In this document: piece after piece, positions 1,281 through 57,544 of the stretch
Numbering within the stretch: the stretch's first letter is position 1
Layout of the letters: each line of letters starts with the position of its first letter
Origin: a virus
Taxonomy: Duplodnaviria; Heunggongvirae; Uroviricota; Caudoviricetes
Reading direction: 5' to 3' (one strand)
Length of the DNA stretch: 64,000 bases
Virus record (IMG/VR): IMGVR_UViG_3300021142_000006
Notes under the pieces: model-generated
Told to the model about the DNA's origin: nothing
Database searches by the model: none
Seen by the model: the letters and a program-made list of their open reading frames with translations, nothing else
Program-made: the position numbers and the translations under genes

Positions 1281-1793
1281 ATGCTACATATTAATGAAAT
1301 ATTGAAATCAAAGAGAACATTCGATGAACCCATATATAGCCAGGTACTTGAACTATATGTACCCATTATAAATAATGACGGTGATCTGGCCTATATAAGC
1401 ACAACCCAATATCTCAATAAAAAAAGATTAATCACACCACCCACAAATGAGTTCTACATGTACTCAGACAATATAGTGGATTCATGCACATTCGAATCCA
1501 AAGACGATATCGCAAAGATTAATGAATTATTATATGTACCACACAAAATATATAAATTCGGTGAGATATACTCCAAACACTATACAGTATTCCTAAATGA
1601 AAAAAATAATATATATGATCCCATTAATATCGCTATATCCTGGGAACCTGTAAGCTACTCATACGAAGATAGAACCAGAATCATTACATCAGATAAACAA
1701 AAAGCTCAAGACAAACTCGATGTATTCAAAGTAGACCTGGCCAGAGAATTCACAGACAAAATAATGAAACTTAGAAGCATTCAACTAAAGTAA
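1281..1793 (+). CDS. hypothetical protein
   Basis: 170-aa ORF on the plus strand. Confidence 0.55.
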   Translation: MLHINEILKSKRTFDEPIYSQVLELYVPIINNDGDLAYISTTQYLNKKRLITPPTNEFYMYSDNIVDSCTFESKDDIAKINELLYVPHKIYKFGEIYSKHYTVFLNEKNNIYDPINIAISWEPVSYSYEDRTRIITSDKQKAQDKLDVFKVDLAREFTDKIMKLRSIQLK

Positions 1794-2144
1794 AGAATTC
1801 ATATAACAAAAAATTATATGTATTCATGTAAGGGGTAGGAATGGGGCGCAGAATTCAAAGAATTACATATAATTAAAAAAAATATTTGTTAAATAGGAGA
1901 GGGTGTCAAATTCTTTGTATTGTATTCACTATTTTTTTTTACCATTTTCTACCACAATTTACCACTTTTCCACACCTCATAAATGCTTGATTAGCAAGGG
2001 TTTACATAATGAATACAGATGAGTATATTTCTATAGAATTCATATGTTTTTATCTATAATATATTCTCGGTATTAAAAGGCATTAATTTAGTATTAATTT
2101 TATTGATCTGAATACAGATAGATATAAAAAAAAGGCTGGTATTT

Positions 2145-2375
2145 GTTGTATATACCTTTTTAATTGTGTTCTTTTACACCAGTGGATGAATTAATGGGTT
2201 TTGTTCAGGGTTGTATATACCTTTCAAATTGTGGTCTTTTACACCACTTCTGCGTTATGGTTGATCTGTTCTATGTTGTATATACCTTTCAAATTGTGGT
2301 CTTTTACACCATTGTTTTGGTAAAACGTTTTGGAAATGTGTTGTATATACCTTTAGGTGGTATAAGTTTAAAAGG
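2145..2375 (+). CRISPR. Mini-CRISPR array: 4 repeats of 36 nt (GTTGTATATACCTTTCAAATTGTGGTCTTTTACACC) and 3 spacers of exactly 29 nt
   Basis: Repeats at 2145-2180 (3 mismatches), 2210-2245 and 2275-2310 (identical), and 2340-2375 (degenerate after the first 15 nt, typical of a terminal repeat). Spacers at 2181-2209, 2246-2274 and 2311-2339 are unique and of uniform length. An AT-rich leader-like tract lies upstream (about 1990-2144). A GAGGA-TAAT-TCCTC hairpin follows immediately downstream (2387-2400). Orientation is inferred from the degenerate repeat being distal to the AT-rich leader. Confidence 0.7.
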
Positions 2376-2537
2376 TATTTGGTGAGTGAGGATAATTCCT
2401 CCTAACATATTAAAATATTTACAATGTTTATTCATTGTTCACCTTATGCTGTACAGCCAGCACGATCCAAATATTAATTTGGAACCTTATTTTATCAATA
2501 AATTAAGAGCTATTAATTATGTTACAAATGTAGTGAA

Positions 2538-3899
2538 TTAAATTGATAGTTCCAAATTTTGTTGAGGAATTTCTTGAGATTTTTTTAGTTTAGCGGCTTT
2601 AATTCTTCCAGCTTTTGAGTTTGGTTTTTCTTCCAGTCCCAATTTGTGTGCTATATTTGTTGCTGCCACGATATCTGCATCGAGGGTTTTTAGGTAATCG
2701 GTGCAAGCTGTGTTAACGCATTCGAATTTGGTATAGTCTTGTTTTGATCTATTTTCCTCATTGATTGTGTGGCAGGTTGGGCATTCTCTGGAAGTATTTT
2801 TTGGGTTAACCCATTGGATTGTAATTCCAGCCATTTCTGCTTTATATTTGATATATGTTTGCAGTTGGAAGTAAGCCCAAGATTTAAGGAATTGGTTATT
2901 TGTATCTTTGGTGATTCCAGTTAGGTCTTCCATCTTTATGATACCCACGTTATATTGTTGTGCTATTTTGATAATTTCGGCAGATATTCTATGGTTTGTG
3001 GTTTGCGCCCAATTTTTTTCTTTATCTCTGAATTGTTCGAGTGCTTTAAGTTTTTTGGTTCTTCCGTGACCGCCAGTTGTTAGTTTGAGAGCTTTTGCAA
3101 TTGATTGTCTATGTTTTAGCATTCTCATTCTATCGTGTTGTATTTTGGAGTTTATATCGATTTGGTATGGTTGTTTTTCTTCATCTGTGATAAAGAATGA
3201 GACTGGTCTATTGATGCCCATATCGATTCCCATTGTTTTATTTGGGATGATATCTTTTGATTTTGTTTCTGGTATATTGACTGTTAGGTAGAGGAAAAGA
3301 TCTTTTCCGTTATATTGTAATGAGCTATTGCACATTTTATATTCTTGTGTAATGGTTTTTCTTACAATAATTTTGTTATTGGATTTATCTTTTCCGAAGA
3401 AGAGTTCGAATGATATATTATTAAATTTTTGTTTTTGTGTTTGTGTGATTGGGAAATCTATTAGATATTTGTTATTATCTAAATATATTTTATTTGAGAA
3501 TCTGATTGGCAGTTTTTCTGATTTGTAGGAAGGGATTGATACTTTATTATTTAGTATATCGTAGAAGTTTTCGGTTATGGTTTTATATATATCTTGGTTC
3601 AGATTTGATCTGATGTCTGATGCTATATGTGGTAGGGAGGTGGTTATTCTGTAGCCGCTATTTTGGATTGAGGTGGTGAGTTGTGCTGTAAGTTTTTCCA
3701 CGGCAATTTTTTTGGTACATTTTTCTGTATCAAGGATTTCTTTAAGGTTAAAGTTATTATTGACGTGTTGTCTAATAATTTGGTTTCCTACTGTTGCGAG
3801 TTCTTTGGATATATCTTTAATAAAGTTATAGACTTTTGTTCTATCTTTGCTGGTTTCTCCTACTGGGATTAGTTTAATTTTTCTTGTGATGATTGACAT
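2538..3899 (-). CDS. TnpB-family RuvC nuclease, Cas12f-like CRISPR effector candidate (453 aa)
   Basis: RuvC-I motif GIDMG, RuvC-II motif IIKMEDLTG, a C-terminal CxxC...CxxxxC zinc finger and RuvC-III motif DADIVAATNIA. The N-terminus (RKIKLIPVGE) resembles the Cas12f/TnpB WED start. The mini-CRISPR array lies 160 bp from its stop. Confidence 0.75.
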   Translation of the reverse strand: MSIITRKIKLIPVGETSKDRTKVYNFIKDISKELATVGNQIIRQHVNNNFNLKEILDTEKCTKKIAVEKLTAQLTTSIQNSGYRITTSLPHIASDIRSNLNQDIYKTITENFYDILNNKVSIPSYKSEKLPIRFSNKIYLDNNKYLIDFPITQTQKQKFNNISFELFFGKDKSNNKIIVRKTITQEYKMCNSSLQYNGKDLFLYLTVNIPETKSKDIIPNKTMGIDMGINRPVSFFITDEEKQPYQIDINSKIQHDRMRMLKHRQSIAKALKLTTGGHGRTKKLKALEQFRDKEKNWAQTTNHRISAEIIKIAQQYNVGIIKMEDLTGITKDTNNQFLKSWAYFQLQTYIKYKAEMAGITIQWVNPKNTSRECPTCHTINEENRSKQDYTKFECVNTACTDYLKTLDADIVAATNIAHKLGLEEKPNSKAGRIKAAKLKKSQEIPQQNLELSI

Positions 3900-3946
3900 A
3901 TTAGTAAAATTCAGATATTAATTTAAAATTTGTGTGTGTGTGTGTA

Positions 3947-4285
3947 TTAGCGATTAAACCATACTATATGTGTAAAATCTTTTCTGTATGTTCCAGATTT
4001 TATATCGCTTGGGTATATTTCTATATTGGACATTTGAGTATTTGTTGCGTAGTTACCTATTCCGTCATAGTCGATAAATCCGCCACAATTAACGTTTGCT
4101 ATGAAGGTTTCTAATGTCATATGGGTGCCATATTCTGGTAAATTTCCCAATAGCTTTCATTACCGTTGGAATCATATTCAAATTTATGCCAAGACCCAGT
4201 TGAATCTTCATGATAAGTAAGTTTACCGTTGGAATCAAATTCTTGGTATGGAAATTCTGTTATCCCCAGTTGTTGTGCTTTGGTC
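3947..4285 (-). pseudogene. Frameshifted repeat-protein gene (two overlapping frames: 4285..4123 and 4150..3947)
   Basis: Manual translation gives MTKAQQLGITEFPYQEFDSNGKLTYHEDSTGSWHKFEYDSNGNESYWEIYQNMAPI-stop. The listed ORF 3947..4150 continues in another frame across the overlap. The repeated xDSNGxxxY motif suggests they were one gene. Confidence 0.35.
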
Positions 4286-4327
4286 ATTGTAACTAAAGTT
4301 TAAGATGTAAAGGTATAATAGGTTTGA

Positions 4328-5281
4328 TTATTTAAATCCGATTTCTTTATGTGCTTTTCCTCTTGGTATTTTTTTCATTCCTTTGAGGTGTGCTATGGCT
4401 GATTCATATTCTATATCGAGCAGAACAACGGATGTAAATAGTTCTTTTAGGTGTGACATGGATAGGCCTTCTGTGTCTTTAACCCAGCGATTTATATCAA
4501 TTTCAGATTTGCTATCACCAATTTTATTAAGGATATAGACTTTTCTAACTTCTTCTGATGGTGGTGAAACGTAATATCTTCTATCGAATCTGGATGGTCT
4601 GTTTGTGATTCTTTCGGCTAATTTTTCTGGATAATTGGTTGTTGCGATATAAACAACGTTTTCGATTTGTTTTATGCCATCCAAGATATTTAGCAATGCT
4701 GATGTGCAATCATTGCTATATTCGGCAACCGAATCGATATCTTCGATAATTACTATCAGTGGTCGATTGGGTTCAATTTGTCTAAATTTTGGGATTAGTT
4801 CGAGATATCCTTTGATTGAATTTTCGTCTTTGAGGTTTATTACGATACCTTCGAGTTCGTTAATAATTTGCTTCATACAAAGTTGAATAATACCAGATTT
4901 ACCACATCCAGGATCACCATGGAGTAATATACCTCTTTTATGCGTGGGTTTATATTGTTGGTAAAAGTCTTTCTTTTTCCAAAATGATTTTATATCCTTG
5001 AGGATATTTTCGATTTCCTCTGTTGGTAGTTCAAATAATTCATCAGTGTTTATTTTCTGATAAAGCATACAAAAATCATTAACTTTATAGTCCCATGTTA
5101 TTTCATATAATCCTGAGGGTAATGTGTTCAGTGAGGCTGTTGCTGGTAAAAACCCACCGTCACCTAAAATGCTCCATTGGCTAAAATTTTTGTATTCCAT
5201 ATTTATTGTTTCTCTTGTTACTGGTATTTCTTGATTATAATTTTTGTATTCCATTTTGATTTCTTTGGGATATAAAGCCAC
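4328..5281 (-). CDS. AAA+ ATPase
   Basis: Walker A motif GDPGCGKS, Walker B motif IVIIEDID, and a sensor/arginine-finger region ATTNYPEKLAERITNRPSRFDRR. Confidence 0.8.
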   Translation of the reverse strand: MALYPKEIKMEYKNYNQEIPVTRETINMEYKNFSQWSILGDGGFLPATASLNTLPSGLYEITWDYKVNDFCMLYQKINTDELFELPTEEIENILKDIKSFWKKKDFYQQYKPTHKRGILLHGDPGCGKSGIIQLCMKQIINELEGIVINLKDENSIKGYLELIPKFRQIEPNRPLIVIIEDIDSVAEYSNDCTSALLNILDGIKQIENVVYIATTNYPEKLAERITNRPSRFDRRYYVSPPSEEVRKVYILNKIGDSKSEIDINRWVKDTEGLSMSHLKELFTSVVLLDIEYESAIAHLKGMKKIPRGKAHKEIGFK

Positions 5282-6279: not shown

Positions 6280-6942
6280 TTACATATTAAATAATGTTTC
6301 AATATATTGTATTGTTGGGTAGTAATTACCTTTTCCGTTGTATTTTTCATCAACGGCGGTTTTAAATTGTTGGAGTGTTCCTCTGAAACAGCCAGCTGAT
6401 ATCATTTTATCTGAAAATGTAATGGTTATTGTCCTATTTGTGTTACCCAAAGAGGATATTGTCATATAATCTGATGTTTTCTCAACTTTAGCTTCACCAC
6501 ATATTACAACCATACCAGAAACTAAAGCGTTACCAAATACCTGAGCATTACCTAATACCTGAGCATTACCAGATACCTCAGATTTACCATATACGTGAGC
6601 ATTACCAGATACCCAAGCATTATCAAATACCTGAGCATTACCAGATACGTGAGCATTACCAGATACCCAAGCATTATCAAATACCTGAGCATTACCAGAT
6701 ACGTGAGCATTACCATATACCTGAGCATTACCTAATACCCAAGCATTACCAGATACATAAGCATTACCATATACGTGAGCATTACCAGATACCCAAGCAT
6801 CATCCAATAAGTTACTCACTTTCTCAATAAAACCACCTTTTGTTCCAGCTTTTCCCCATATGCAATCTTCTGTTAATTCAATACGGTAAAGTGTTTTGAA
6901 ATTGAATTGTATTTTTTCATCCGTTAATTTATATGGTGTCAT
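6280..6942 (-). CDS. hexapeptide-repeat (beta-helix type) protein
   Basis: About 17 tandem GNA[HQW]V[SYF] hexapeptide repeats. The underlying DNA has near-perfect 18-bp and 57-bp tandem repeats at about 6530-6800. Confidence 0.6.
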   Translation of the reverse strand: MTPYKLTDEKIQFNFKTLYRIELTEDCIWGKAGTKGGFIEKVSNLLDDAWVSGNAHVYGNAYVSGNAWVLGNAQVYGNAHVSGNAQVFDNAWVSGNAHVSGNAQVFDNAWVSGNAHVYGKSEVSGNAQVLGNAQVFGNALVSGMVVICGEAKVEKTSDYMTISSLGNTNRTITITFSDKMISAGCFRGTLQQFKTAVDEKYNGKGNYYPTIQYIETLFNM

Positions 6943-22965: not shown

Positions 22966-23718
22966 TTATAAAATTTTAACTTCTCGTTCTTCTTTATTTA
23001 CCTCAATAACAATTGGTTTGTTAACAAAATTATGACCATCATCAAGTATGCAAGCATTTACATACGTTGTGTTTTCATCATAATCAACATTGCGACCAGG
23101 GTGAATGTGACCACACATATGAACCAATGGTTTGATTTCTTTAACCCTATATCTCAATTGTTCACAACCAAGATATTCGTTTTGATCAGGTAAATAATCC
23201 AACTTATAAGATACTGGTGTATGAGTCATTATGATATCAGTATCAAGTGGTATTTGTTTCCATACCTCATCAATTTCATCACCTCTGTACTTATTAAAAC
23301 CCCAGCGATCACCATGAAACCACGGAGATACTGGAGAACCCCATATCTTTAATCCATTGATTGTTATATCACTGTTTTCAAGATAATGGATATTACCTGG
23401 CAAATTGTTTATCATTTGTTTTAACCAATATGGCTTAATCTTGGGCAATTCACCATTAACATCATCAATTTGGTAATCACCGAACTTTGGGTCAAATGTT
23501 TTATCATGGTTGCCGCATATGAAGACAATACCATATGTATATCTATCAACAATGCTTTCAAACCATTTAAATATGTCCTCAACTTCTCCCTTTTTACCAA
23601 GGTTGGTTAAATCACCACAATGACATAACAAATCACCATGTGGCAATAAATCTCCATATGCTTTGCTTGTAAGGTATTTATGTTTATTGTGTGTATCTGT
23701 TATGCAAACAATTTTCAT
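22966..23718 (-). CDS. calcineurin-like metallophosphoesterase
   Basis: Motifs CITDTH, GDL.....GNHD and GHIH in canonical order. Confidence 0.7.
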   Translation of the reverse strand: MKIVCITDTHNKHKYLTSKAYGDLLPHGDLLCHCGDLTNLGKKGEVEDIFKWFESIVDRYTYGIVFICGNHDKTFDPKFGDYQIDDVNGELPKIKPYWLKQMINNLPGNIHYLENSDITINGLKIWGSPVSPWFHGDRWGFNKYRGDEIDEVWKQIPLDTDIIMTHTPVSYKLDYLPDQNEYLGCEQLRYRVKEIKPLVHMCGHIHPGRNVDYDENTTYVNACILDDGHNFVNKPIVIEVNKEEREVKIL

Positions 23719-38414: not shown

Positions 38415-38907
38415 GTTCTAATTTTGTTGCTAATGCAAAGTTACTTAATTCTTTGATACCAGTAACCTCCATTATGATTAAATCTTTGATTTCTTGTGGA
38501 AAAATAATTTCCTGATTGATATCCTCAAGCTCGACTTCAAGTATTGTTAAGTTTGTACCATCAATTTCATCGAACTCAAAATGAAAACCATTTGCAAAAT
38601 GAACATATCTTTGTTTATAAAGGCCTTTAAAAACTTTATTGCTTAATTCTTCGAATTTTAATTGATCGATATCCTCATGCATTTCAACGTATTCACCAAT
38701 TCCTTTCTGTATTTTATGCAGATATTCATATGATTCATGGACATTATTTGGCCAATCCGTTAGATCAATTTTTTGTCGAACTCTCTTAACTAAATCACCA
38801 TCATGTAAATAATATTGACTAATACCATAAATTTTATCCCATTGTACTGGAAATGATGGTAATTTCTTCATAAGAAATCTACGCTCTATCTCTTTAACCT
38901 CTTTCAT
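38401..38907 (-). CDS. CYTH-domain (triphosphate tunnel metalloenzyme) protein
   Basis: N-terminal EIERRFLMKKLP matches the CYTH ExExK start, with multiple downstream acidic/basic strand motifs. Confidence 0.45.
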   Translation of the reverse strand: MKEVKEIERRFLMKKLPSFPVQWDKIYGISQYYLHDGDLVKRVRQKIDLTDWPNNVHESYEYLHKIQKGIGEYVEMHEDIDQLKFEELSNKVFKGLYKQRYVHFANGFHFEFDEIDGTNLTILEVELEDINQEIIFPQEIKDLIIMEVTGIKELSNFALATKLEHVNQ

Positions 38908-39916
38908 ATGTGTTTCTGAATATTTGAATTAATTGTGGACTTATACTGAAACGCTTTTCGTTAATTTCCAAACTTTTATTAAAATCACCATCTTTTGTTC
39001 TTTCAATAGCCGCTTTCCAATCACAATACATTTCAACAATATCTTGCAATGTCATATCACTTACTGGGCTATTTAATTCTCGATATTCATCAATATTCCA
39101 TGATTTAAATGTTAGATCTAAATGTGTGTTTGTTGGATCGTCAGATGTTATACATCTCCAAATACCAGCCGAAGAAGCATTTAAATACCCACGAGAAATT
39201 AATTCCTTCTCCATTTTCTCAGTACCAAATGTAATAAAATCTAATTCATTACATTGAACAACATATTTTACATTTGGCGTGGCTAAACCAGTATCATAGG
39301 CATGTTGTAAATTTTCTGATGGTGTTAACCATTCCAGGTTTTCAATGTAATTTTCAAGCTTTCTGCCATTTTTATGATTAACTTGATATCTATCATTTGG
39401 TGGTGATGGTAGAAAAGCATTAGCAACCAATGAATGTATGAAAAAGTTTTTACCAATATTATTAGTTTGTAATCTAATTCTCGCATAACCTTTTGGTGTT
39501 ACATGTGCTTTCATTATCATTTCCTTACCAATAAAATCACCTTGTGATTCTCTATGGATTATTGTTGATAATCGCTTAACCCTACCACGTGATGATATTT
39601 GATATATACCAACATAACCAGAAATATCCATCCACAATTCATTAAACTCCACAAATTGTGGGTGATGAGAGTTATTAGCATAGTGGTGGTCTAATGCCAC
39701 TTCTAATTCTTTAAGACTGGCTTTATATTCATCTGAACCATATGTCATATTTGACAGTCTTGGAGTTAACTCATCGAATAATTCCTTTTCTGGTGAATGT
39801 AACTTAGATTCATCATGAATATTAGCCCTTACTAATAATTCTTTTGAAAAATTGTTTAAATTTTGTGATACTTTGCGAATATGTTCGAGTGTATCAGCTT
39901 TGCTATCGTATGCCAT
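38894..39916 (-). CDS. HNH homing endonuclease (NUMOD4 + HNH_3 modules) with flanking domains
   Basis: WMDISGYVGIYQISSRGRVKRL matches NUMOD4. QVNHKNGRKLENYIENLEWLTPSEN matches HNH_3. Confidence 0.7.
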   Translation of the reverse strand: MAYDSKADTLEHIRKVSQNLNNFSKELLVRANIHDESKLHSPEKELFDELTPRLSNMTYGSDEYKASLKELEVALDHHYANNSHHPQFVEFNELWMDISGYVGIYQISSRGRVKRLSTIIHRESQGDFIGKEMIMKAHVTPKGYARIRLQTNNIGKNFFIHSLVANAFLPSPPNDRYQVNHKNGRKLENYIENLEWLTPSENLQHAYDTGLATPNVKYVVQCNELDFITFGTEKMEKELISRGYLNASSAGIWRCITSDDPTNTHLDLTFKSWNIDEYRELNSPVSDMTLQDIVEMYCDWKAAIERTKDGDFNKSLEINEKRFSISPQLIQIFRNTYERG

Positions 39917-48591: not shown

Positions 48592-48969
48592 TTATATATG
48601 TAAATATTGTGCTGTTAAAAATAACTGTAAATAATGTAGACATTGATCTATACCAATGACTACGAATGCCCAATGATAATTTTTTGATGCGAATAATGGA
48701 CTGGTTATTCTACTGGTAACGAAATCCGTTAAACCATGTGCAAAAAAGGTAATTGTAAATACAAATAAAACCGTTGGTGCAAATGATAATTTAAATACAT
48801 ACCACCAGAAACCTGCTGTAATAAGAGCATAGGTTAACACATGAAATGTTAATGCATCAAACCTTTTGCTCTTATTTTCAGCTTGCCATGAAGTCTGACA
48901 AAAAAAGTCAGCAAACCAATGTATAAAAATTATCAATAATATATTAATAATTATCTGGTTGGTTAACAT
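48592..48969 (-). CDS. membrane protein (4 TM)
   Basis: 125-aa hydrophobic ORF. Confidence 0.45.
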   Translation of the reverse strand: MLTNQIIINILLIIFIHWFADFFCQTSWQAENKSKRFDALTFHVLTYALITAGFWWYVFKLSFAPTVLFVFTITFFAHGLTDFVTSRITSPLFASKNYHWAFVVIGIDQCLHYLQLFLTAQYLHI

Positions 48970-50549
48970 ATTTCTTCAAGTTTTTTACGAATCTCGGTTA
49001 AAGTCGTTTGGTTATAGAATTTACCATCTTCGTAAATGGTTTGTAGAATTCCAGCGGCTTCCATTTCTGGAGTACATTGTGTATTTACAATATATTCACC
49101 ATCATAATCTTTAGTAACACAAACCCTACCTTTAAGTGATTTTTTGGTGCTCTTACCAGAAGCATCCCTATCAGTTACTGGTTCTTTGTAGATGTCATAT
49201 GATTGACGAATTTGGAATACGCTTTCGTCAGGATGTGAAGTTGCATCTTGCAATACTTCAAACCAAGCGCCTTTAGCGGCAAAACCTAAAGTATCACGAG
49301 TATTATATTGGTATGTGAATGAACCAACACCAAGTACAATATTAGTAGAAGCAAAACCTTTAGCGGCTAACCTTTCATAGATTTTAATCTGACGATCCAA
49401 TGTGATTGAATCACCGTAAATGGCACCAATGTGTGGGTCAAGAACTTTGTAACCTTGTTCGTTAACTGTACCACCGAAGATTTCCCAAAGTAATTCGATT
49501 ACACCTTTTTCTTCACTTGTCCAAATTTCATTTTTGTTTTCCGATAAATCTCGGTCACTTTGTAAAAATGAACCACAGATAATATCTACTGGATCACCTG
49601 AGTCAGGACGAATAACCAACTTACCATCACGAGCCATAATAGCTTCTTTGTTTGCTGGTAAGTATTCGGTAATCAACTCCCACAAATCAAATGTATCTGA
49701 CACAATGGAAAGAATACCTTTAGGGAATATCTGCAACCAATCGGCAATCATTTGTTGTTCACCAACTGTAAAAATCTTAGTACAACTAACTGAATGTTCG
49801 CTTGCGTTTACTGAATTGATAAAAACTTCATTTTCAGGTTCATCATAAAAATAACGAGCGCCTGGGATGCAAATAATTGTATCAGAACCTCTAAATGAAG
49901 TAGCATGTCCTAAACCACTTGATAACATATCCCAAGGAGATAAACCACGAGCAGAGAAATCATGAGCAAGGAAAGGAATTAACCATGCGTTAGCTGGATC
50001 TGTTTTCATAACCCAATTAACTAAATTCCTGCGATATTGTAAGGCAATAGTTGCTGATGTTGATGGTTTCCAAGCCAATGATGAAATGATTGTTTCCAAA
50101 TATAAAGTTAACCATGCAAAACCATCAATTGTATTGATGAATGTCATGTGTGGTATATTAGGTAATGTTTCAATACCTTCTGGTAATGATTTGATTCGAA
50201 TTGGTAAATAACCAACATCATGAAGAGCTTCGAAGTGTGAAGCATCATAATCCATTCCAAGATACATTGACATGTCTTTACCAAATTTAATAGCGATATC
50301 TTTTGGTTGGCTAAAGAAATGTTCTGTGAACTCGTCATGTAGCCAACGAACAAGTAATTGTTGACCAAATGATACAATTTTTTTGATACCACCTGGAGCA
50401 TATTTAACGCTACGTGGAATCCATGTGCCGTACAATCTTGTTGTACCTGGGGCTAACATTGCTTTGTGCGCTGTTTTATAGCCATCTACATAATATAAAC
50501 TACAAGGTTTAAACATATTTATTTTTTGTTTTAGAATGTAAAGATACAA
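48963..50549 (-). CDS. nadV: nicotinamide phosphoribosyltransferase (NAMPT/NadV)
   Basis: 528 aa. N-terminal YKTAHK..L region plus conserved GSDT and IRPDSGDP blocks typical of NAMPT. Confidence 0.85.
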   Translation of the reverse strand: MYLYILKQKINMFKPCSLYYVDGYKTAHKAMLAPGTTRLYGTWIPRSVKYAPGGIKKIVSFGQQLLVRWLHDEFTEHFFSQPKDIAIKFGKDMSMYLGMDYDASHFEALHDVGYLPIRIKSLPEGIETLPNIPHMTFINTIDGFAWLTLYLETIISSLAWKPSTSATIALQYRRNLVNWVMKTDPANAWLIPFLAHDFSARGLSPWDMLSSGLGHATSFRGSDTIICIPGARYFYDEPENEVFINSVNASEHSVSCTKIFTVGEQQMIADWLQIFPKGILSIVSDTFDLWELITEYLPANKEAIMARDGKLVIRPDSGDPVDIICGSFLQSDRDLSENKNEIWTSEEKGVIELLWEIFGGTVNEQGYKVLDPHIGAIYGDSITLDRQIKIYERLAAKGFASTNIVLGVGSFTYQYNTRDTLGFAAKGAWFEVLQDATSHPDESVFQIRQSYDIYKEPVTDRDASGKSTKKSLKGRVCVTKDYDGEYIVNTQCTPEMEAAGILQTIYEDGKFYNQTTLTEIRKKLEEIC

Positions 50550-51041: not shown

Positions 51042-51806
51042 TTAATTTTTATATTTCCAAATAAATTTTCCAGCGGTTTTAACTTTACCCTTCAAACAAG
51101 TTGTAATGTTTGTGGGAAATATATTTAATTCAGTTCCAGCCTCTTTTGCACTTTTCCAATCTCGTATATATTCACCTTCTTTAGTATATTGTTGAATTGG
51201 TATTGATAATTTATCAATCATTGATTCTTTGCTTTGTTCAGTTAAAGTACTTTTTTTACCTTTCATTGGATGTGTGTTTGTTTTAAAAAACTTTTTCATA
51301 CTTTCCGATTTTTTTTGTTTAACTTCATCTGGCATTTTTTTACCATACTGCCAATGTTTCTCACCACCTTGTGCTTCGGATTTTAATTTTCTTCGCCATT
51401 CTGGGTGTTTTTCACCAAGATGTGCCAATCGACATTTTTCCTTTGTTTCATCACTACGTTTAACGCCTAACGAACTGCCAGCAACTTTACAAACATTATA
51501 TTCGCTGTTTGAGTTATCGATCCACCATTGTTCACGAATCAATAAATCCTCTTTTTTATCGACCTTTTCAAGTATGATAAATTCAAAATTATCCTCACCA
51601 TATTTAGTCCAGGCTCTTTGCAGATAGTCGGAATGGTGTATTTCTTTTTTTAATTGTCGTAAATGTATTGTTTTACGTTTATAAAAGTTTACAGCCGATC
51701 CCACATATTTATGACCGTTGATTTTGTTTACTATTCCATATATTGCTTTCATAACAATAAATATATGGGAAAAGGACAAAATTCTACCCTTGATCGTCAA
51801 AGTCAA
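51042..51806 (-). CDS. GIY-YIG homing endonuclease with C-terminal NUMOD-type DNA-binding module
   Basis: IYGIVNKINGHKYVGSAVNFYKR...H matches the GIY-YIG motif. The C-terminus has a NUMOD1-like helix. Confidence 0.75.
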   Translation of the reverse strand: MTLTIKGRILSFSHIFIVMKAIYGIVNKINGHKYVGSAVNFYKRKTIHLRQLKKEIHHSDYLQRAWTKYGEDNFEFIILEKVDKKEDLLIREQWWIDNSNSEYNVCKVAGSSLGVKRSDETKEKCRLAHLGEKHPEWRRKLKSEAQGGEKHWQYGKKMPDEVKQKKSESMKKFFKTNTHPMKGKKSTLTEQSKESMIDKLSIPIQQYTKEGEYIRDWKSAKEAGTELNIFPTNITTCLKGKVKTAGKFIWKYKN

Positions 51807-53371: not shown

Positions 53372-54337
53372 TTAAAAAACATTTAATTGTTGAATGAAAT
53401 CTTCTTTAATGGTAATATCTGAAAAATTGATATCAGCTTTATCTTTAACACTATTCGTGCAATAGATTTTTGTAAAGTATTTACTTAGTTCAGATAAACC
53501 AGCACTAAATATACCATGTGTTACCACCAAGTAAATATTGCCGTAATCTTTTGGTTGTACCGAACTTGATAAATTTCTACGTTCTTGGATTGTTTTTGCA
53601 ATTTCAATAAACGTTCTACCACCATCACAAATATCATCAAAAATAAAGAAATCTTTGTCAGCATCTGTTACTGACATGTGAACATTTGTGTAATCAATCT
53701 TACCAGTATCAAGATTACGATGTTTTGAAGCAATGATTACCTCATTTTTGTATTTCAAAGCTTCTGCCACATGAAATACTTTTTTCAAAGCACCAGCATC
53801 AGGAGATATAAAACGAACATTGTCATAATTTAGAGCTATTTTATCCCCATCGGTAAATTTTCCATCCTGGATTTGCGTTCTGAGATAATCAGATAAAGCA
53901 AAACGTGCCAACTCAGTGTTATCAATTTTTTTGAAGTTATTTATACATGCCTCAAGCACATCTGAATGAGGATCAACCACAGTAACGGACTCGTAATTTT
54001 GAGAATTGATAATAGGAGCAATAACGTGTTTAACGTAATTAATACCACCTTCCATGAACTTTCTGTCACTTCTGGCACCCATACAATATGGAATGTATAA
54101 TTCAATTGATTTTACACCTATACCACGAAGAGCTTGTGTGGCACAAATAATAAGTTCCAGATCCTGAAAATTATTCAATCTGGATTTAATTTTGATAGGT
54201 ATTGTTTGATTTGTAATACCGTAGAATGTATGTATATTTTCTTCTATCAGTCTTAATGACTGCTGACCGTCTGGGAAACGGCTAATTTCATATTTTATAC
54301 TATTTGTAGGGTTAACCAGATTTAATACATCTGTCAT
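53372..54337 (-). CDS. ribose-phosphate pyrophosphokinase-like (PRPP synthetase family)
   Basis: VVDPHSD, ISPDAGA and IFDDICDGGRT blocks correspond to the Prs flexible loop, PP loop and ribose-5-P loop. Confidence 0.75.
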   Translation of the reverse strand: MTDVLNLVNPTNSIKYEISRFPDGQQSLRLIEENIHTFYGITNQTIPIKIKSRLNNFQDLELIICATQALRGIGVKSIELYIPYCMGARSDRKFMEGGINYVKHVIAPIINSQNYESVTVVDPHSDVLEACINNFKKIDNTELARFALSDYLRTQIQDGKFTDGDKIALNYDNVRFISPDAGALKKVFHVAEALKYKNEVIIASKHRNLDTGKIDYTNVHMSVTDADKDFFIFDDICDGGRTFIEIAKTIQERRNLSSSVQPKDYGNIYLVVTHGIFSAGLSELSKYFTKIYCTNSVKDKADINFSDITIKEDFIQQLNVF

Positions 54338-54390: not shown

Positions 54391-54963
54391 TTAGAAAATT
54401 TCGTTAATTATTCCATACCTCAATGCCTCATCAGCTCCAAAGTACCAATCTGTCTTCATCTTCTTTGCTAAAGTCATCTTTCTTCTGCTCAACTTGGTTC
54501 TCTCAATCAAATGGTCATCATATAATTGATCCAATGCCATGTTTTCCTTCAGGTCACTACTCATAGTAGTCAAGGTAGAGTTTATCTCTCCGATAAGACT
54601 TGTTTCATGATACATAAATCTACACATCCTATGCGCTTTTACATAATGTCCTGATACAGCAATATTCAAAGCTATTGACATAATAGAACCATAACACCAA
54701 ATATGAACAGGGGTTTTAGATGACTCTATTACCCCAATAATTGCACCACCAGCAGCTACATCACCACCCTCACTACATAAATGGAAATTTATCGGCATTC
54801 TCTCATATTTAGAATCAGCCTTCTCCATTTTTGTATCATATTCATTAATTATTAATATGAGATTAGCAGCTTCAGCAACAATTTCCTTATCAATGTCACC
54901 AAATAACACAATTTCCCTGGAAGGCTCTTCAATATCTAAATCTTCTTGCTTACTTTTACTCAT
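54391..54963 (-). CDS. ClpP-like serine protease
   Basis: GGDVAAGGAI, GSIMSIA and RFMYHET blocks parallel ClpP oxyanion/Ser/His regions. Confidence 0.5.
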   Translation of the reverse strand: MSKSKQEDLDIEEPSREIVLFGDIDKEIVAEAANLILIINEYDTKMEKADSKYERMPINFHLCSEGGDVAAGGAIIGVIESSKTPVHIWCYGSIMSIALNIAVSGHYVKAHRMCRFMYHETSLIGEINSTLTTMSSDLKENMALDQLYDDHLIERTKLSRRKMTLAKKMKTDWYFGADEALRYGIINEIF

Positions 54964-55062: not shown

Positions 55063-56403
55063 TTAATTTATGACTTCAGATTGTGCTTCCTCTTCGTCAA
55101 TAAACCCAGAATCCTTAATAATTCCTTCTAACACTTTGAAGTTGAAGTTCTTATGTTTGAAGATCCTAACAGCAAGGCCTGATTCAAGTCTGATACATGA
55201 ACCTTCTGACCAGTGTGTTGAGTCAGTTGGGTCGACACCATCTGAAACTTGGTTAACATATTCAATGAATTTGTCATTAAAATCACGGTCATCAGTGATG
55301 TTATGTCTTAATTTAAATTCATTTACCGTAAAACGGTCAAGTTCTGGTGAGTGTTTAACACCGATTTCAGAACAACGTCTTTTAACGTCATCCCATGAGT
55401 AGTCAACCATTTTACCATCTTCATTTGTCATTGTCATACGGTAAACAAATACGTCTGATTGACCGTCAGCACAACCATACTTGAAAATCATGTGTTTATT
55501 ATCACCAGCATTTGAATACAACTTGGTGAAGTTTTTGTCACCAATTTTTGTTGTATCCACCATACCCATAATTGGTCTGCCAAGTGACTCATATCCAACA
55601 ATTTCAAAATATACCGTTTCACCTTTTCTCAGGTTGTCTTTAAATAGGTTGAATGCTTTATCACGAATTGTTGGATCATGGAATTGTGTTCCTGAGCTTT
55701 CCTCAATAACAACCCTTCTTGTTCCATTTAGAAATGACCAATCCTTTTCTTTGATTTTGGCACCAAAAAACTTTGCAATCTTTTCGATTGTTGTTAACTT
55801 TCTGTCAATCAACACGTGACCAACCCTTCCAGATGTTCCATGTTGCTTAGATGTGATGATAATTAAATCGTTTGGTTCGATTTTATCAATGTTAACAATC
55901 ATATGTTTGGTATCGATATGTTCAAAGAACATTTCAGATGTTTTTGCTTTGCGAACTTTCTTTGGTTGATTCTCCTTAGCCGCTTTAACAGTTGCTGGAT
56001 TAACATATTTATTACAGATAGGTACACCTTTCCAAGTGTCGAATTCGTAACCTTCCACATCAAGACCAGTTATTTCAATGAATGCAAAATAGTGTAATGG
56101 AACCCAAAACCCATCTGAAATTTCACCACGAAACTTTTGAGCCCTAACCCTACGGTTATCATCAAACATACCTGGCTTAGCTTCAGTATTTTTGTTCTTA
56201 GTATTATCCCTATAAAGATTATTGGCTTTACAGAATTCGTCAGATAATTGTCCGTCACACGGAAAATACACACCCCATTCAGATTCCTTAGAATCCAATC
56301 CAATAACCACTTGGTTACCATGGCAAGTTGCCAACTGCACTTTATCCGCATTTGAATGTGGCCTTACATCTTTTAATCTTGTTACAATTGCTGTGTATGA
56401 CAT
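55063..56403 (-). CDS. ATP-dependent RNA ligase (Rnl2-like nucleotidyltransferase with N-terminal OB-like domain)
   Basis: Motif I KQHGTSG (KxHG[TS]), with downstream motif III/IV-like blocks (ETVYFEIVGYE, DVFVYRM). Confidence 0.55.
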   Translation of the reverse strand: MSYTAIVTRLKDVRPHSNADKVQLATCHGNQVVIGLDSKESEWGVYFPCDGQLSDEFCKANNLYRDNTKNKNTEAKPGMFDDNRRVRAQKFRGEISDGFWVPLHYFAFIEITGLDVEGYEFDTWKGVPICNKYVNPATVKAAKENQPKKVRKAKTSEMFFEHIDTKHMIVNIDKIEPNDLIIITSKQHGTSGRVGHVLIDRKLTTIEKIAKFFGAKIKEKDWSFLNGTRRVVIEESSGTQFHDPTIRDKAFNLFKDNLRKGETVYFEIVGYESLGRPIMGMVDTTKIGDKNFTKLYSNAGDNKHMIFKYGCADGQSDVFVYRMTMTNEDGKMVDYSWDDVKRRCSEIGVKHSPELDRFTVNEFKLRHNITDDRDFNDKFIEYVNQVSDGVDPTDSTHWSEGSCIRLESGLAVRIFKHKNFNFKVLEGIIKDSGFIDEEEAQSEVIN

Positions 56404-56836: not shown

Positions 56837-57544
56837 TTATTTAGATTCTTTTCTTTGTTTATCAGTAAAATTTAATTCATCTTTAAGGTTGTCCATTACA
56901 GCATTTAAATTTATTTCATCACCAACACTCATGCTCTTTAAAGAAGCTGTTTTAGCGCTTCTATATGACCTTATATTAGAACTGAATGCCGCATATGTTG
57001 CACCTATCGAATTATCATTTGTAGCCCAACTAAGAGTACTTTTATCAGACATACCCATTGCGCCACCAACAGAAATAGCGTCTTGATTTGCACCCAGGTA
57101 AACAAATTTCCAGTTATCCTTTTCTTTTTGTTCGATTATGTTTTTGATAGCATTACCTTTATATTCTCTACTGGCGTTTTCTTCACCATCAGTGATAATT
57201 ACCATAATGATATCACGGTCAGTTTTTTCCAATTCATTGATTGTTTTACCAATAGCATCGTGTAATGCTGTTGAACCCCTTGGTTGATAGGTTTCACCAT
57301 ATACTAAGTCGTTAACGTCTTTAATTGGTGTGGATTTATAATTCAATTCATATCTGTCATCAAATTGCACCAAAGTTACAAATGCTTCACCTTCAGCATT
57401 TTTTTGTTCGTTTAAAAACTTATTAAAGTTCTCAACAGTTGCTTTAGCAATACTTGACATTGAACCTGAACGATCCAATATAACAACAATTTCGGTTTGA
57501 TTTAATTTTTTTTCTGTGTCAACCACATTAATTTGTTCTTGCAT
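56837..57544 (-). CDS. von Willebrand factor A (vWA) domain protein
   Basis: MIDAS motif DRSGSM, with downstream T and D residues of the vWA fold. Confidence 0.7.
   Translation of the reverse strand: MQEQINVVDTEKKLNQTEIVVILDRSGSMSSIAKATVENFNKFLNEQKNAEGEAFVTLVQFDDRYELNYKSTPIKDVNDLVYGETYQPRGSTALHDAIGKTINELEKTDRDIIMVIITDGEENASREYKGNAIKNIIEQKEKDNWKFVYLGANQDAISVGGAMGMSDKSTLSWATNDNSIGATYAAFSSNIRSYRSAKTASLKSMSVGDEINLNAVMDNLKDELNFTDKQRKESK

Follow-up and report, generated by a model that had tools for sequence, protein, structure and literature searches.

Organization of the locus

The window analyzed here, a 64,000-nt stretch of the IMG/VR virus record IMGVR_UViG_3300021142_000006 (Duplodnaviria; Heunggongvirae; Uroviricota; Caudoviricetes), carries a compact type V CRISPR-Cas locus in which a cas12f gene stands beside a short CRISPR array (Table 1). 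A preliminary description of this DNA had proposed such a locus on a phage, and the Cas12f profiles, the mini-array and the phage-like gene content bear the proposal out. The elements on which it was built, namely 36-nt repeats, three unique 29-nt spacers and an adjoining 453-residue RuvC/zinc-finger nuclease with the motifs quoted for it, are all seen in the sequence.

The repeats begin at 2145, 2210 and 2275, with a period of exactly 65 nt. The copies at 2210 and 2275 are identical to each other, the copy at 2145 differs by three mismatches, and a 15-nt partial copy lies at 2340-2354; the array thus bounded spans 2145-2354 and holds three spacers, all unique and each 29 nt long. The 64 kb contain four copies of a 12-nt core of the repeat, with no copy outside the array, where 0.41 would be expected by chance; none of 100 shuffles reached four. 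From the stop codon of cas12f to the partial repeat there are 183 nt; the 160 bp reported earlier for this distance hold approximately if a full 36-nt ‘degenerate repeat’ is counted, but not for the 15-nt partial copy.

Read on the minus strand, cas12f is followed by 183 nt of non-coding DNA, the half repeat AAAGGTATATACAAC, spacer 1, a repeat, spacer 2, a repeat, spacer 3, the three-mismatch repeat and finally AAATACCAGCC-T8. The array itself reads in this direction, the same as cas12f, because the 3' end of its repeat and the scaffold that precedes it are homologous to the validated guide of Al3Cas12f. The plus-strand reading was rejected: an array of that polarity would start with a mutated repeat and finish with a truncated one, and it would put the conserved ...ATACAAC end away from the spacers, unlike in validated Cas12f guides. 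By this sequence-based assignment, the element at 2340-2354, previously described as a degenerate terminal repeat, is instead a leader-proximal half repeat fused to a scaffold that resembles a tracrRNA (trans-activating CRISPR RNA); the copy at 2145-2180 is the true terminal repeat. The segment beyond it (2126-2144) is a possible end of the transcription unit.

An Rfam search of positions 1500-4500 at E≤1 returned no match, CRISPR-DR families included. The repeats (GTTG...TTTGAAAGGTA..ACAAC; GTTG...ATTTGAAAGGTATATACAAC) presumably resemble the direct repeats of Bacteroidota type VI-B (Cas13b) systems; string searches of the literature for this likeness gave nothing usable, and the likeness, if true, could bear on the origin of the spacers.

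Table 1. Features of the cas12f locus; positions are counted from the first nucleotide of the 64,000-nt window
Feature	Position	Strand	Basis or remark
cas12f, 453 residues	2538..3899	-	Open reading frame, profile and structure matches
Bacteroidota-type promoter-like element	2525..2556	-	-33 TTTG at 2556-2553; -7 TACATTTG at 2532-2525
tracrRNA-like structured scaffold, ~140-150 nt	2355..2493	-	Fold, covariation, covariance model, likeness to Al3Cas12f
Anti-repeats	2359..2378	-	Pairing of ATACCTTTTAAA (2378-2367) with TTTGAAAGGTAT in every repeat, and of TTATACC (2365-2359) with repeat 5' GGTGTAA
Half repeat AAAGGTATATACAAC	2340..2354	-	Covalently joined to scaffold; closes hairpin with anti-repeat; 3' end is the pseudoknot partner TACAAC
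Spacer 1 ACATTTCCAAAACGTTTTACCAAAACAAT	2311..2339	-	Read as guide of a natural single-guide RNA
Full repeat GGTGTAAAAGACCACAATTTGAAAGGTATATACAAC	2275..2310	-	Repeat comparison
Spacer 2 ATAGAACAGATCAACCATAACGCAGAAGT	2246..2274	-	In frame, encodes IEQINHNAEV
Full repeat, same as 2275-2310	2210..2245	-	Repeat comparison
Spacer 3 CCTGAACAAAACCCATTAATTCATCCACT	2181..2209	-	Reverse complement encodes VDELMGFVQ
Terminal degenerate repeat, three mismatches	2145..2180	-	Repeat comparison
Possible transcription-unit end	2126..2144	-	ATACC pairs with GGTAT of terminal repeat, then AGCC and T8

The effector is a Cas12f1 protein of ordinary size

The open reading frame (ORF) of cas12f carries the motifs GIDMG, IIKMEDLTG and DADIVAATNIA, together with a CxxC...CxxxxC zinc finger. 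An active, catalytically competent nuclease is expected from the sequence, because the RuvC triad D226/E324/D409 and the four cysteines C373, C376, C394 and C399 are invariant in an alignment of 28 homologues. Profile searches identify the Cas12f1-like_TNB domain of Pfam (PF07282, 1.4e-14) and two PADLOC families that match over the full length, Cas12u3 (1.9e-90, residues 3-420 on profile positions 2-389 of 398) and Cas12f (CAS-V-F, 5.4e-88). The NCBIfam model for Cas12f2, a separate subfamily, gives 98.7 bits against the 450 set for it. Among structures in the PDB, the best relative by sequence is Al3Cas12f of Alistipes (9NZO/9NZR, entries identified through PMC13186708; 5e-51, residues 77-400), and SpCas12f1, CnCas12f1 and AsCas12f (1e-35) also match; Cas12f1 proteins as a group range from 5e-51 to 1e-34, and dCas12f reaches just 3.7e-20.

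Structurally, the AlphaFold2 model (predicted local distance difference test score, pLDDT, of 86.2) gives the same answer. In a Foldseek search of the PDB, ranks 1 to 22 are all Cas12f or dCas12f (7.5e-28 to 1e-15), led by AsCas12f1 at 7.5e-28, with Al3Cas12f at ~1e-25. The first TnpB appears at rank 23 (TnpB proteins 1e-13 to 1e-11), Cas12p scores 6e-12 and LaTranC 4e-8. By profile, sequence and fold, the effector is therefore a Cas12f1 protein (type V-F1/V-U3), and its size is ordinary for the group: V-U3 is an older name for part of Cas12f1, with proteins of 422-497 residues and loci without adaptation genes (PMC7229846). Like its relatives, the protein probably works as a dimer, presumably an asymmetric homodimer with a single guide RNA that would cleave double-stranded DNA in a PAM-dependent way (PMC13186708, PMC7229846).

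Several other families were considered as nearest kin; the Cas12p ‘hacker’, Cas12j, Cas12k and LaTranC were rejected in that role on their profile and Foldseek scores. For Cas12j (CasPhi), the PADLOC profile reaches just 1.5e-6 and covers residues 219-331 only; membership is also at odds with the length (453 residues versus ~700-800) and with the presence of a tracrRNA-like scaffold.

The preliminary description had gone further and suggested a possibly undescribed miniature subtype, with an effector at the low end of the Cas12f size range. A new phage-specific Cas12 subtype would be in keeping with Foldseek identities of 25-29% to characterized Cas12f proteins (the local alignment with Al3Cas12f is visibly higher), with a clade that is wholly metagenomic and whose members, where the context suffices, lie on phage-like or IMG/VR viral contigs, and with the naming of its clusters, none of the five checked bearing a Cas12f name and several having NCBI members. 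Yet the V-F/V-U3 profile hidden Markov models match over the full length at 1e-90, and fold, size and guide-RNA architecture are those of Cas12f1, validated Al3Cas12f included. The suggestion is thus not supported. PADLOC, PDB and Foldseek place the protein in Cas12f1, the best profiles being Cas12u3/Cas12f and not a new family, and V-U/Cas14 loci of phages were published in 2020 (PMC7162821); as to size, 453 residues fall inside the V-U3 range (PMC7229846), and a phage TranC, CauTranC9, has 414 (bioRxiv 10.64898/2026.03.27.714800). A new subtype is accordingly very improbable, and the assignment to Cas12f1 is retained.

A (TG)n microsatellite of ~8 units (3930-3947) lies ~30 nt upstream of the cas12f start codon.

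A conserved scaffold RNA runs into the first guide

The non-coding DNA between cas12f and the array contains a structured element whose conserved start lies ~45 nt past the stop codon. It consists of a 5' hairpin, a stem 1 (2463-2458/2451-2446) that carries the pseudoknot loop GCTGTA (2457-2452), a closing helix GGTGA/TCACC enclosing internal hairpins, and then the anti-repeats. The minimum free energy of 2311-2560 has a z-score of -4.2. A covariance model finds one copy of the scaffold in the 64 kb (2340-2493, 114 bits), and it also recovers scaffolds outside its training set, in the related loci L021, L023 and L025 (~108 bits).

Comparison with related loci supports this structure. These loci come from two sources. 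In the first, the proteins are 58-64% identical and the contigs, which reach 296-331 kb, are phage-like; the second consists of viral contigs from IMG/VR (29-310 kb), where identity is 41-53%. In an alignment of 14 scaffolds, RNAalifold reveals compensatory changes at 13 of 21 pairs; with the pseudoknot included, 95% of cells are paired, against at most 49% in slid controls, and the observed value is reached by none of 500 shuffles on four of five pairing measures and by one of 500 on the fifth. The stem-1 loop, GTTGTA in most loci, complements the last six bases of the repeat, TACAAC, and the two sides covary: locus L024 has the loop GTTGTG and the repeat end CACAAC, and Al3Cas12f has GUUGGA and UCCAAC.

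The anti-repeats, located by a complementarity scan, engage both ends of the repeat through a 12-bp and a 7-bp helix, with ATACCTTTTAAA immediately upstream of the half repeat. For the window, RNAduplex gives the anti-repeat:repeat duplex -17.1 kcal/mol, against -5.0 ± 2.1 kcal/mol for shuffled repeats, and in L024 the anti-repeat is altered in step with its repeat. The same scaffold also has the features needed for a tracrRNA role toward the full repeats downstream.

The scaffold also leads directly into a guide. In all related loci, a conserved element of ~145 nt ends in a half repeat and runs straight into a guide; altogether, 18 such units were found in 12 related phage loci, all leading directly to a guide and most continuing with repeat-spacer units. 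There are one or two units per locus, upstream and/or downstream of cas12f. Two-unit loci are L011, L014, L022, L024 and L027; some second units lack an adjoining protein gene, as do the duplicated scaffolds of L011, L014 and L116, and the downstream unit of L022 has a guide and no repeats. This arrangement closely parallels the validated single-guide RNA (sgRNA) of Al3Cas12f (PMC13186708). That RNA opens with a 5' hairpin and a stem 1 whose loop, GUUGGA, can pair with UCCAAC at the end of the repeat; internal hairpins and the anti-repeat come next, and a GAAA loop introduced by engineering leads on to a 17-nt portion of the repeat and the guide. The half repeat of the window is of the same length class as that 17-nt portion. 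As judged from the sequence, the phage genome thus encodes in one piece what is otherwise engineered as a Cas12f sgRNA.

In L021, a GC-rich hairpin, GGGGGACCGAAGGTCCCCC, recurs several times in the non-coding DNA downstream of cas12f (3400-4300); the phage is otherwise AT-rich.

The locus is reproducible, and its spacers turn over between strains

The exact protein recurs in 36 collection blocks, on contigs of up to ~150-159 kb, and the ten loci displayed for it all agree in their repeats and spacers. Seven independent assemblies span the 744-nt intergenic region that holds scaffold and array, and its sequence is 100% identical in all of them; two contigs ending inside the region match as far as they extend. 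Because the locus is identical across independent assemblies, it is no assembly artifact; the repeats, which the preliminary description took to be real, are present in all assemblies checked. Neighboring genes differ among assemblies (202 versus 220 residues; 308 versus 317 residues). A YdcK-type beta-solenoid repeat protein (GNAxVxGNAxV..., 6280-6942), for example, has 202 or 220 residues in assemblies of the same phage.

In a sister strain, the corresponding site of a 179.6-kb contig is occupied by a locus whose Cas12f falls within the 90%-identity cluster of the window protein. Two units of scaffold and array are present there (L116 2857-3700; L117), in which the scaffold is nearly identical and the spacers are wholly different. 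Array content thus turns over between close relatives, because the two strains share the site and differ in spacers. Some spacers of the sister strain are irregular and short, and the L117 array contains a run of N. Contigs L113, L115 and L118 stop precisely at the edge of the array, a sign that assemblies may break at this point. The window loop GCTGTA (2452-2457) matches the TACAGC repeat ends of unit 1 in the sister strain (L116). Because a window-type loop is paired there with TACAGC repeats, the single unit of the window may have arisen by recombination or deletion between two units.

These observations bear on the notion of a decaying remnant, a fossil array without current function. A remnant might be read into the mere three spacers, the invariant array, the mismatch in the pseudoknot (see below) and the lack of visible adaptation genes. 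Against decay, dozens of assemblies carry the same intact ORF, its catalytic residues are conserved, the RNA has evolved by compensatory change, and the spacers have been fully replaced in the sister strain. Of all the explanations weighed here, a remnant is the hardest to credit.

Genomic neighborhood analysis covered the called genes on record within ±10 kb of the locus. Among them, no cas1, cas2 or cas4 domain was found, in agreement with the preliminary description; no PADLOC adaptation protein matched any of ten mid-sized ORFs of the window, small ORFs not having been scanned exhaustively. The neighborhood likewise contains no Y1 transposase (TnpA-type) domain and no sigma-70_r2/r4 or helix-turn-helix (HTH) family. 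All contigs that have the flanking 170-residue gene and are long enough also have cas12f, at an unchanged distance, and none of them shows an empty site; the ends of an insertion sequence were not searched for directly.

On this basis, the locus can be set against an IS200/IS605-type TnpB, a selfish transposon whose omega or right-end RNA would have had its 3' end tandemly duplicated into the observed repeats. The NCBIfam guided_TnpB model does match, with 152.9 bits over a cut-off of 100, JGI labels relatives ‘IS605 OrfB transposase’, a unit of scaffold plus guide is omegaRNA-like, and one unit, downstream in L022, has a guide without repeats. However, a transposon accords poorly with a single copy in the window, with the absence of a Y1 transposase among the neighboring genes and with a site never seen empty. 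The scaffold, furthermore, begins past the stop codon with no overlap of the ORF and is followed by regular repeat-spacer units of 65-66 nt, the spacers vary between strains, and both fold and sequence are far nearer to Cas12f than to ISDra2 or ISFba1 TnpB. Of the findings that the preliminary description would have counted against its own reading, neither a TnpA among the called genes within ±10 kb nor any sign of mobility among the contigs compared was seen. A transposon origin of the locus is highly unlikely.

Two spacers resemble bacterial chromosomal genes

Spacer 2 gives the clearest lead. A metagenome scan with its first 20 nt, array copies removed, found a match of 26/29 at the 3' extreme of a 1000-residue ORF (L018) with the domains ResIII, HSDR_N and EcoEI_R_C, that is, the R subunit of a type I restriction enzyme. 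Of the three differences, two are synonymous and the remaining one alters the last residue, Ala to Val. The encoded peptide IEQINHNAEV is the conserved C-terminal motif of HsdR, ...LIExINHNAE[AV]A, across the family, and other HsdR homologues match at the same place with 22-23/29, with the 5' flanks TCATTA and GTCTT. Spacer 2 is thus likely derived from an hsdR-type gene. A further match, in L019 (24/29), was judged a chance one. Many database proteins among the EcoEI_R_C homologues are just 100-280 residues long and consist of the EcoEI_R_C domain only.

Spacer 3 has a 21-nt exact in-frame match (23/29 overall) in a SlyD-type FKBP gene of a Bacteroidetes metagenome-assembled genome. Its peptide, VDELMGFVQ, compares with the family motif GNELMGFVQE, and another member (L122) matches at 22/29 with the 5' flank CCAATTT. 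The spacer thus resembles Bacteroidota slyD, but it is a weaker lead than spacer 2, because scans of this kind are expected to yield about one chance match. For spacer 1, no target was found in the window, IMG/VR, INPHARED or PLSDB.

Other searches were negative within their scope. Allowing up to three mismatches, the spacers have no second match in the 64 kb, which gives no sign of self-targeting; 20-mers of all three spacers have no match in IMG/VR; the seven spacers of the window and the sister strain have none in INPHARED or PLSDB; and a comparison of the clade's 87 unique spacers with all collected loci gives short chance matches only.

The resemblance to host genes raises the question of whether the system binds and silences genes such as hsdR without cutting them, in the manner of dCas12f, Cas12m or the ‘dCas14’ proposed for one huge phage. 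The chimeric guide is like that of the Bacteroidota dCas12f-sigmaE systems (PMC13472631, PMC10691335), and a repressive role was proposed for one phage Cas14 by Al-Shayeb et al. (PMC7162821). Silencing is difficult to reconcile, however, with RuvC residues and a zinc finger that are invariant in 28 homologues; dCas12f proteins, moreover, are C-terminally truncated, the genes on record within ±10 kb include no rpoE or HTH partner, and the match of spacer 2 at the 3' end of its gene would be a poor site for repression. Silencing as the main activity is accordingly very improbable.

Transcription signals, host and phage context

The promoter-like element of Table 1 straddles the stop codon of cas12f, upstream of the scaffold. 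Its pattern, TTTG-N19/20-TAnnTTTG, which we take to be the promoter consensus of Bacteroides and Flavobacterium, precedes 9 of 18 scaffold units of the clade, mostly the first unit of a locus; the chance background of the -7 motif TAnnTTTG in such a window is ~8%. A Bacteroides promoter consensus was reportedly set out by Bayley et al. in 2000, a reference cited in PMC13472631. The segment 2525-2556 is accordingly a putative promoter. A scan for sigma-70 promoters returned no more sites than in shuffles, and a scan for consensus terminators, which requires three G-C pairs, returned none at the array end; both are uninformative for a Bacteroidota-type system. The host is probably a member of the Bacteroidota, because of this motif and because the nearest characterized relative of the effector comes from Alistipes.

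The window as a whole is phage-like, with 52 of 55 large ORFs on one strand and PHROG matches to NAMPT, an RNA ligase, an HNH endonuclease and a phosphoribosyl pyrophosphate (PRPP) synthase-like protein. Megablast found no INPHARED phage that matches its first 12 kb, tblastn gave distant TnpB-like genes only, and no tRNA gene was found in the 64 kb. The nicotinamide phosphoribosyltransferase (NAMPT; 48963-50549, PHROG 448, 1e-151) and the ribose-phosphate pyrophosphokinase-like protein (53372-54337, 3e-59) flank a GIY-YIG/NUMOD homing endonuclease gene (51042-51806); we take this NAD-salvage pair to recall the NAD+ reconstitution by which phages counter NAD-depleting defenses. A 250-residue ORF (22966-23718) matches the PADLOC candidate defense family PDC-S10 (4.6e-63). 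Other genes encode an HNH endonuclease (38894-39916), a ClpP-like protease (54391-54963), an RNA ligase (55063-56403) and a VWA-domain protein (56837-57544).

Relation to known Cas12f systems

Within Cas12f1, the nearest characterized system is that of Al3Cas12f (Alistipes, Bacteroidota; 9NZO, 9NZR), a member of the Cas12f-MG119 family; the family is reported to recognize T-rich protospacer-adjacent motifs (PAMs), and Al3Cas12f is reported to be an obligate dimer (PMC13186708). The two share the plan of the guide, with a repeat portion of ~15-17 nt before the guide sequence. The window protein, however, is ~50 residues shorter at its N-terminus, distant in sequence and phage-borne, and the junction between tracrRNA and repeat is a natural genomic loop in the window, whereas it is an engineered GAAA tetraloop in the Al3Cas12f sgRNA. 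AsCas12f1 (422 residues; 8DZJ, 7WJU, 8J12; Karvelis et al. 2020, PMC7229846) belongs to the same size class of 422-497 residues and likewise lacks adaptation genes. In V-U3/Cas12f1 loci, as in the window, the array lies downstream of the gene, with the tracrRNA region in between (PMC7229846); those known are bacterial (Clostridia, Bacilli) with a tracrRNA separate from the array, whereas the tracrRNA of the window runs into the half repeat and spacer 1.

The phage setting and the fused guide each have precedents. Al-Shayeb et al. (2020) described V-U/Cas14 loci of huge phages that retain the catalytic residues, lack Cas1, Cas2 and Cas4 and have compact arrays, some with spacers to host genes; the window resembles them in all these traits, but a fused tracrRNA-guide is not described there (PMC7162821). 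Altae-Tran et al. (2023) reported that, in the Cas12f1 branch, a half repeat fused to the tracrRNA re-creates an omegaRNA-like guide, in units that are duplicated (PMC10691335). Chimeric guides were shown experimentally in a 2026 study of dCas12f-sigmaE, in which some loci have both single guides and CRISPR arrays (PMC13472631). These Bacteroidota systems, which derive from Cas12f1, share with the window the chimeric single guide of scaffold, half repeat and guide; the likeness concerns RNA design only, not membership. Their proteins are C-terminally truncated and nuclease-dead, and they occur on chromosomes in linkage with rpoE/HTH genes, whereas the window has an intact RuvC domain, retains its array, lies on a phage and has no sigma factor gene on record in the neighborhood.

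TranC proteins (Jin et al. 2025, Cell) are described as TnpB-derived intermediates in the splitting of a single guide into tracrRNA and CRISPR RNA (crRNA) (PMC13565253; bioRxiv 10.64898/2026.03.27.714800). They resemble the window in pairing a compact TnpB-derived nuclease with a CRISPR array, and CauTranC9 is phage-borne and smaller than the window protein. The fold match to LaTranC is nevertheless weak (4e-8 versus ~1e-28 for Cas12f), and the profile of the window protein is V-F1/V-U3. Phage V-U/Cas14 loci, Cas12f1 biochemistry and chimeric Cas12f-derived guides are already published; what is distinctive here is that an intact nuclease goes together with a retained array, a fused first guide and residence on a phage, a combination that is consistent across the clade.

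Proposed mechanism and implications

The locus is, with good confidence, a CRISPR-Cas12f interference module of type V-F1 (V-U3-like) that is carried by a phage and lacks adaptation genes, and in which a natural sgRNA heads the array. The observations that carry this reading are the protein family, the catalytic residues, the conservation of RNA structure, the complementarity of repeat and anti-repeat, the reproducibility of the locus and the turnover of spacers between strains; transcription, processing, dimerization, cleavage, the PAM and the actual targets are inferred.

Several points weigh against it. On the protein side, NCBIfam offers only the generic name ‘RNA-guided endonuclease TnpB family’ (residues 98-419). 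On the RNA side, the window loop GCTGTA and the repeat end TACAAC leave one C-A mismatch in the pseudoknot, the hairpin formed in cis could compete with pairing in trans, and the array is invariant in the sampled population. On the target side, scans of the window, IMG/VR, INPHARED, PLSDB and metagenomes found an exact protospacer for none of the three spacers, the hsdR and slyD matches come from 20-mer metagenome scans in which about one chance match is expected each, and the slyD match fails across the PAM-distal 6-7 nt.

Under the proposed mechanism, the Bacteroidota-type promoter just past the cas12f stop codon would probably drive a single minus-strand transcript comprising a scaffold of ~140 nt, the half repeat with spacer 1, and three full repeats with two more spacers. 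Scaffold, half repeat and spacer 1, being covalently joined, would form a natural single-guide RNA. The same scaffold would also serve the downstream units in trans, its anti-repeats pairing with both ends of each repeat and the stem-1 loop forming a pseudoknot with the repeat 3' end. Cas12f, probably as a dimer, would then cleave double-stranded DNA that is flanked by a PAM and complements a guide. One guide at least, and probably a second, would come from bacterial chromosomal genes, the 3' end of hsdR and a slyD-like gene. Because of this derivation, the most likely use would be an attack on the host chromosome or host defense during infection, or on rival elements that carry such genes. 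New spacers would have to come from outside, through a host Cas1-Cas2 acting in trans or through recombination.

A more far-reaching version of this scheme is possible, though less likely than not. It would make the clade a nuclease-active phage lineage of Cas12f that stands between a split tracrRNA/crRNA and a re-fused guide, uses its scaffold in a dual mode and cuts the chromosome of its Bacteroidota host, hsdR included, as counter-defense or takeover.

The locus does not overturn current understanding. It adds a well-documented phage lineage to Cas12f1, and it offers a natural, ready-made single-guide design for a 453-residue effector that is predicted to be nuclease-competent. It also appears to be a living example of the fusion of tracrRNA and half repeat that has been proposed as a step of guide-RNA evolution in the Cas12f1 branch. 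If the assignments of spacers to hsdR and slyD are true, this phage would be aiming a CRISPR nuclease at the chromosomal genes and the defense of its host.

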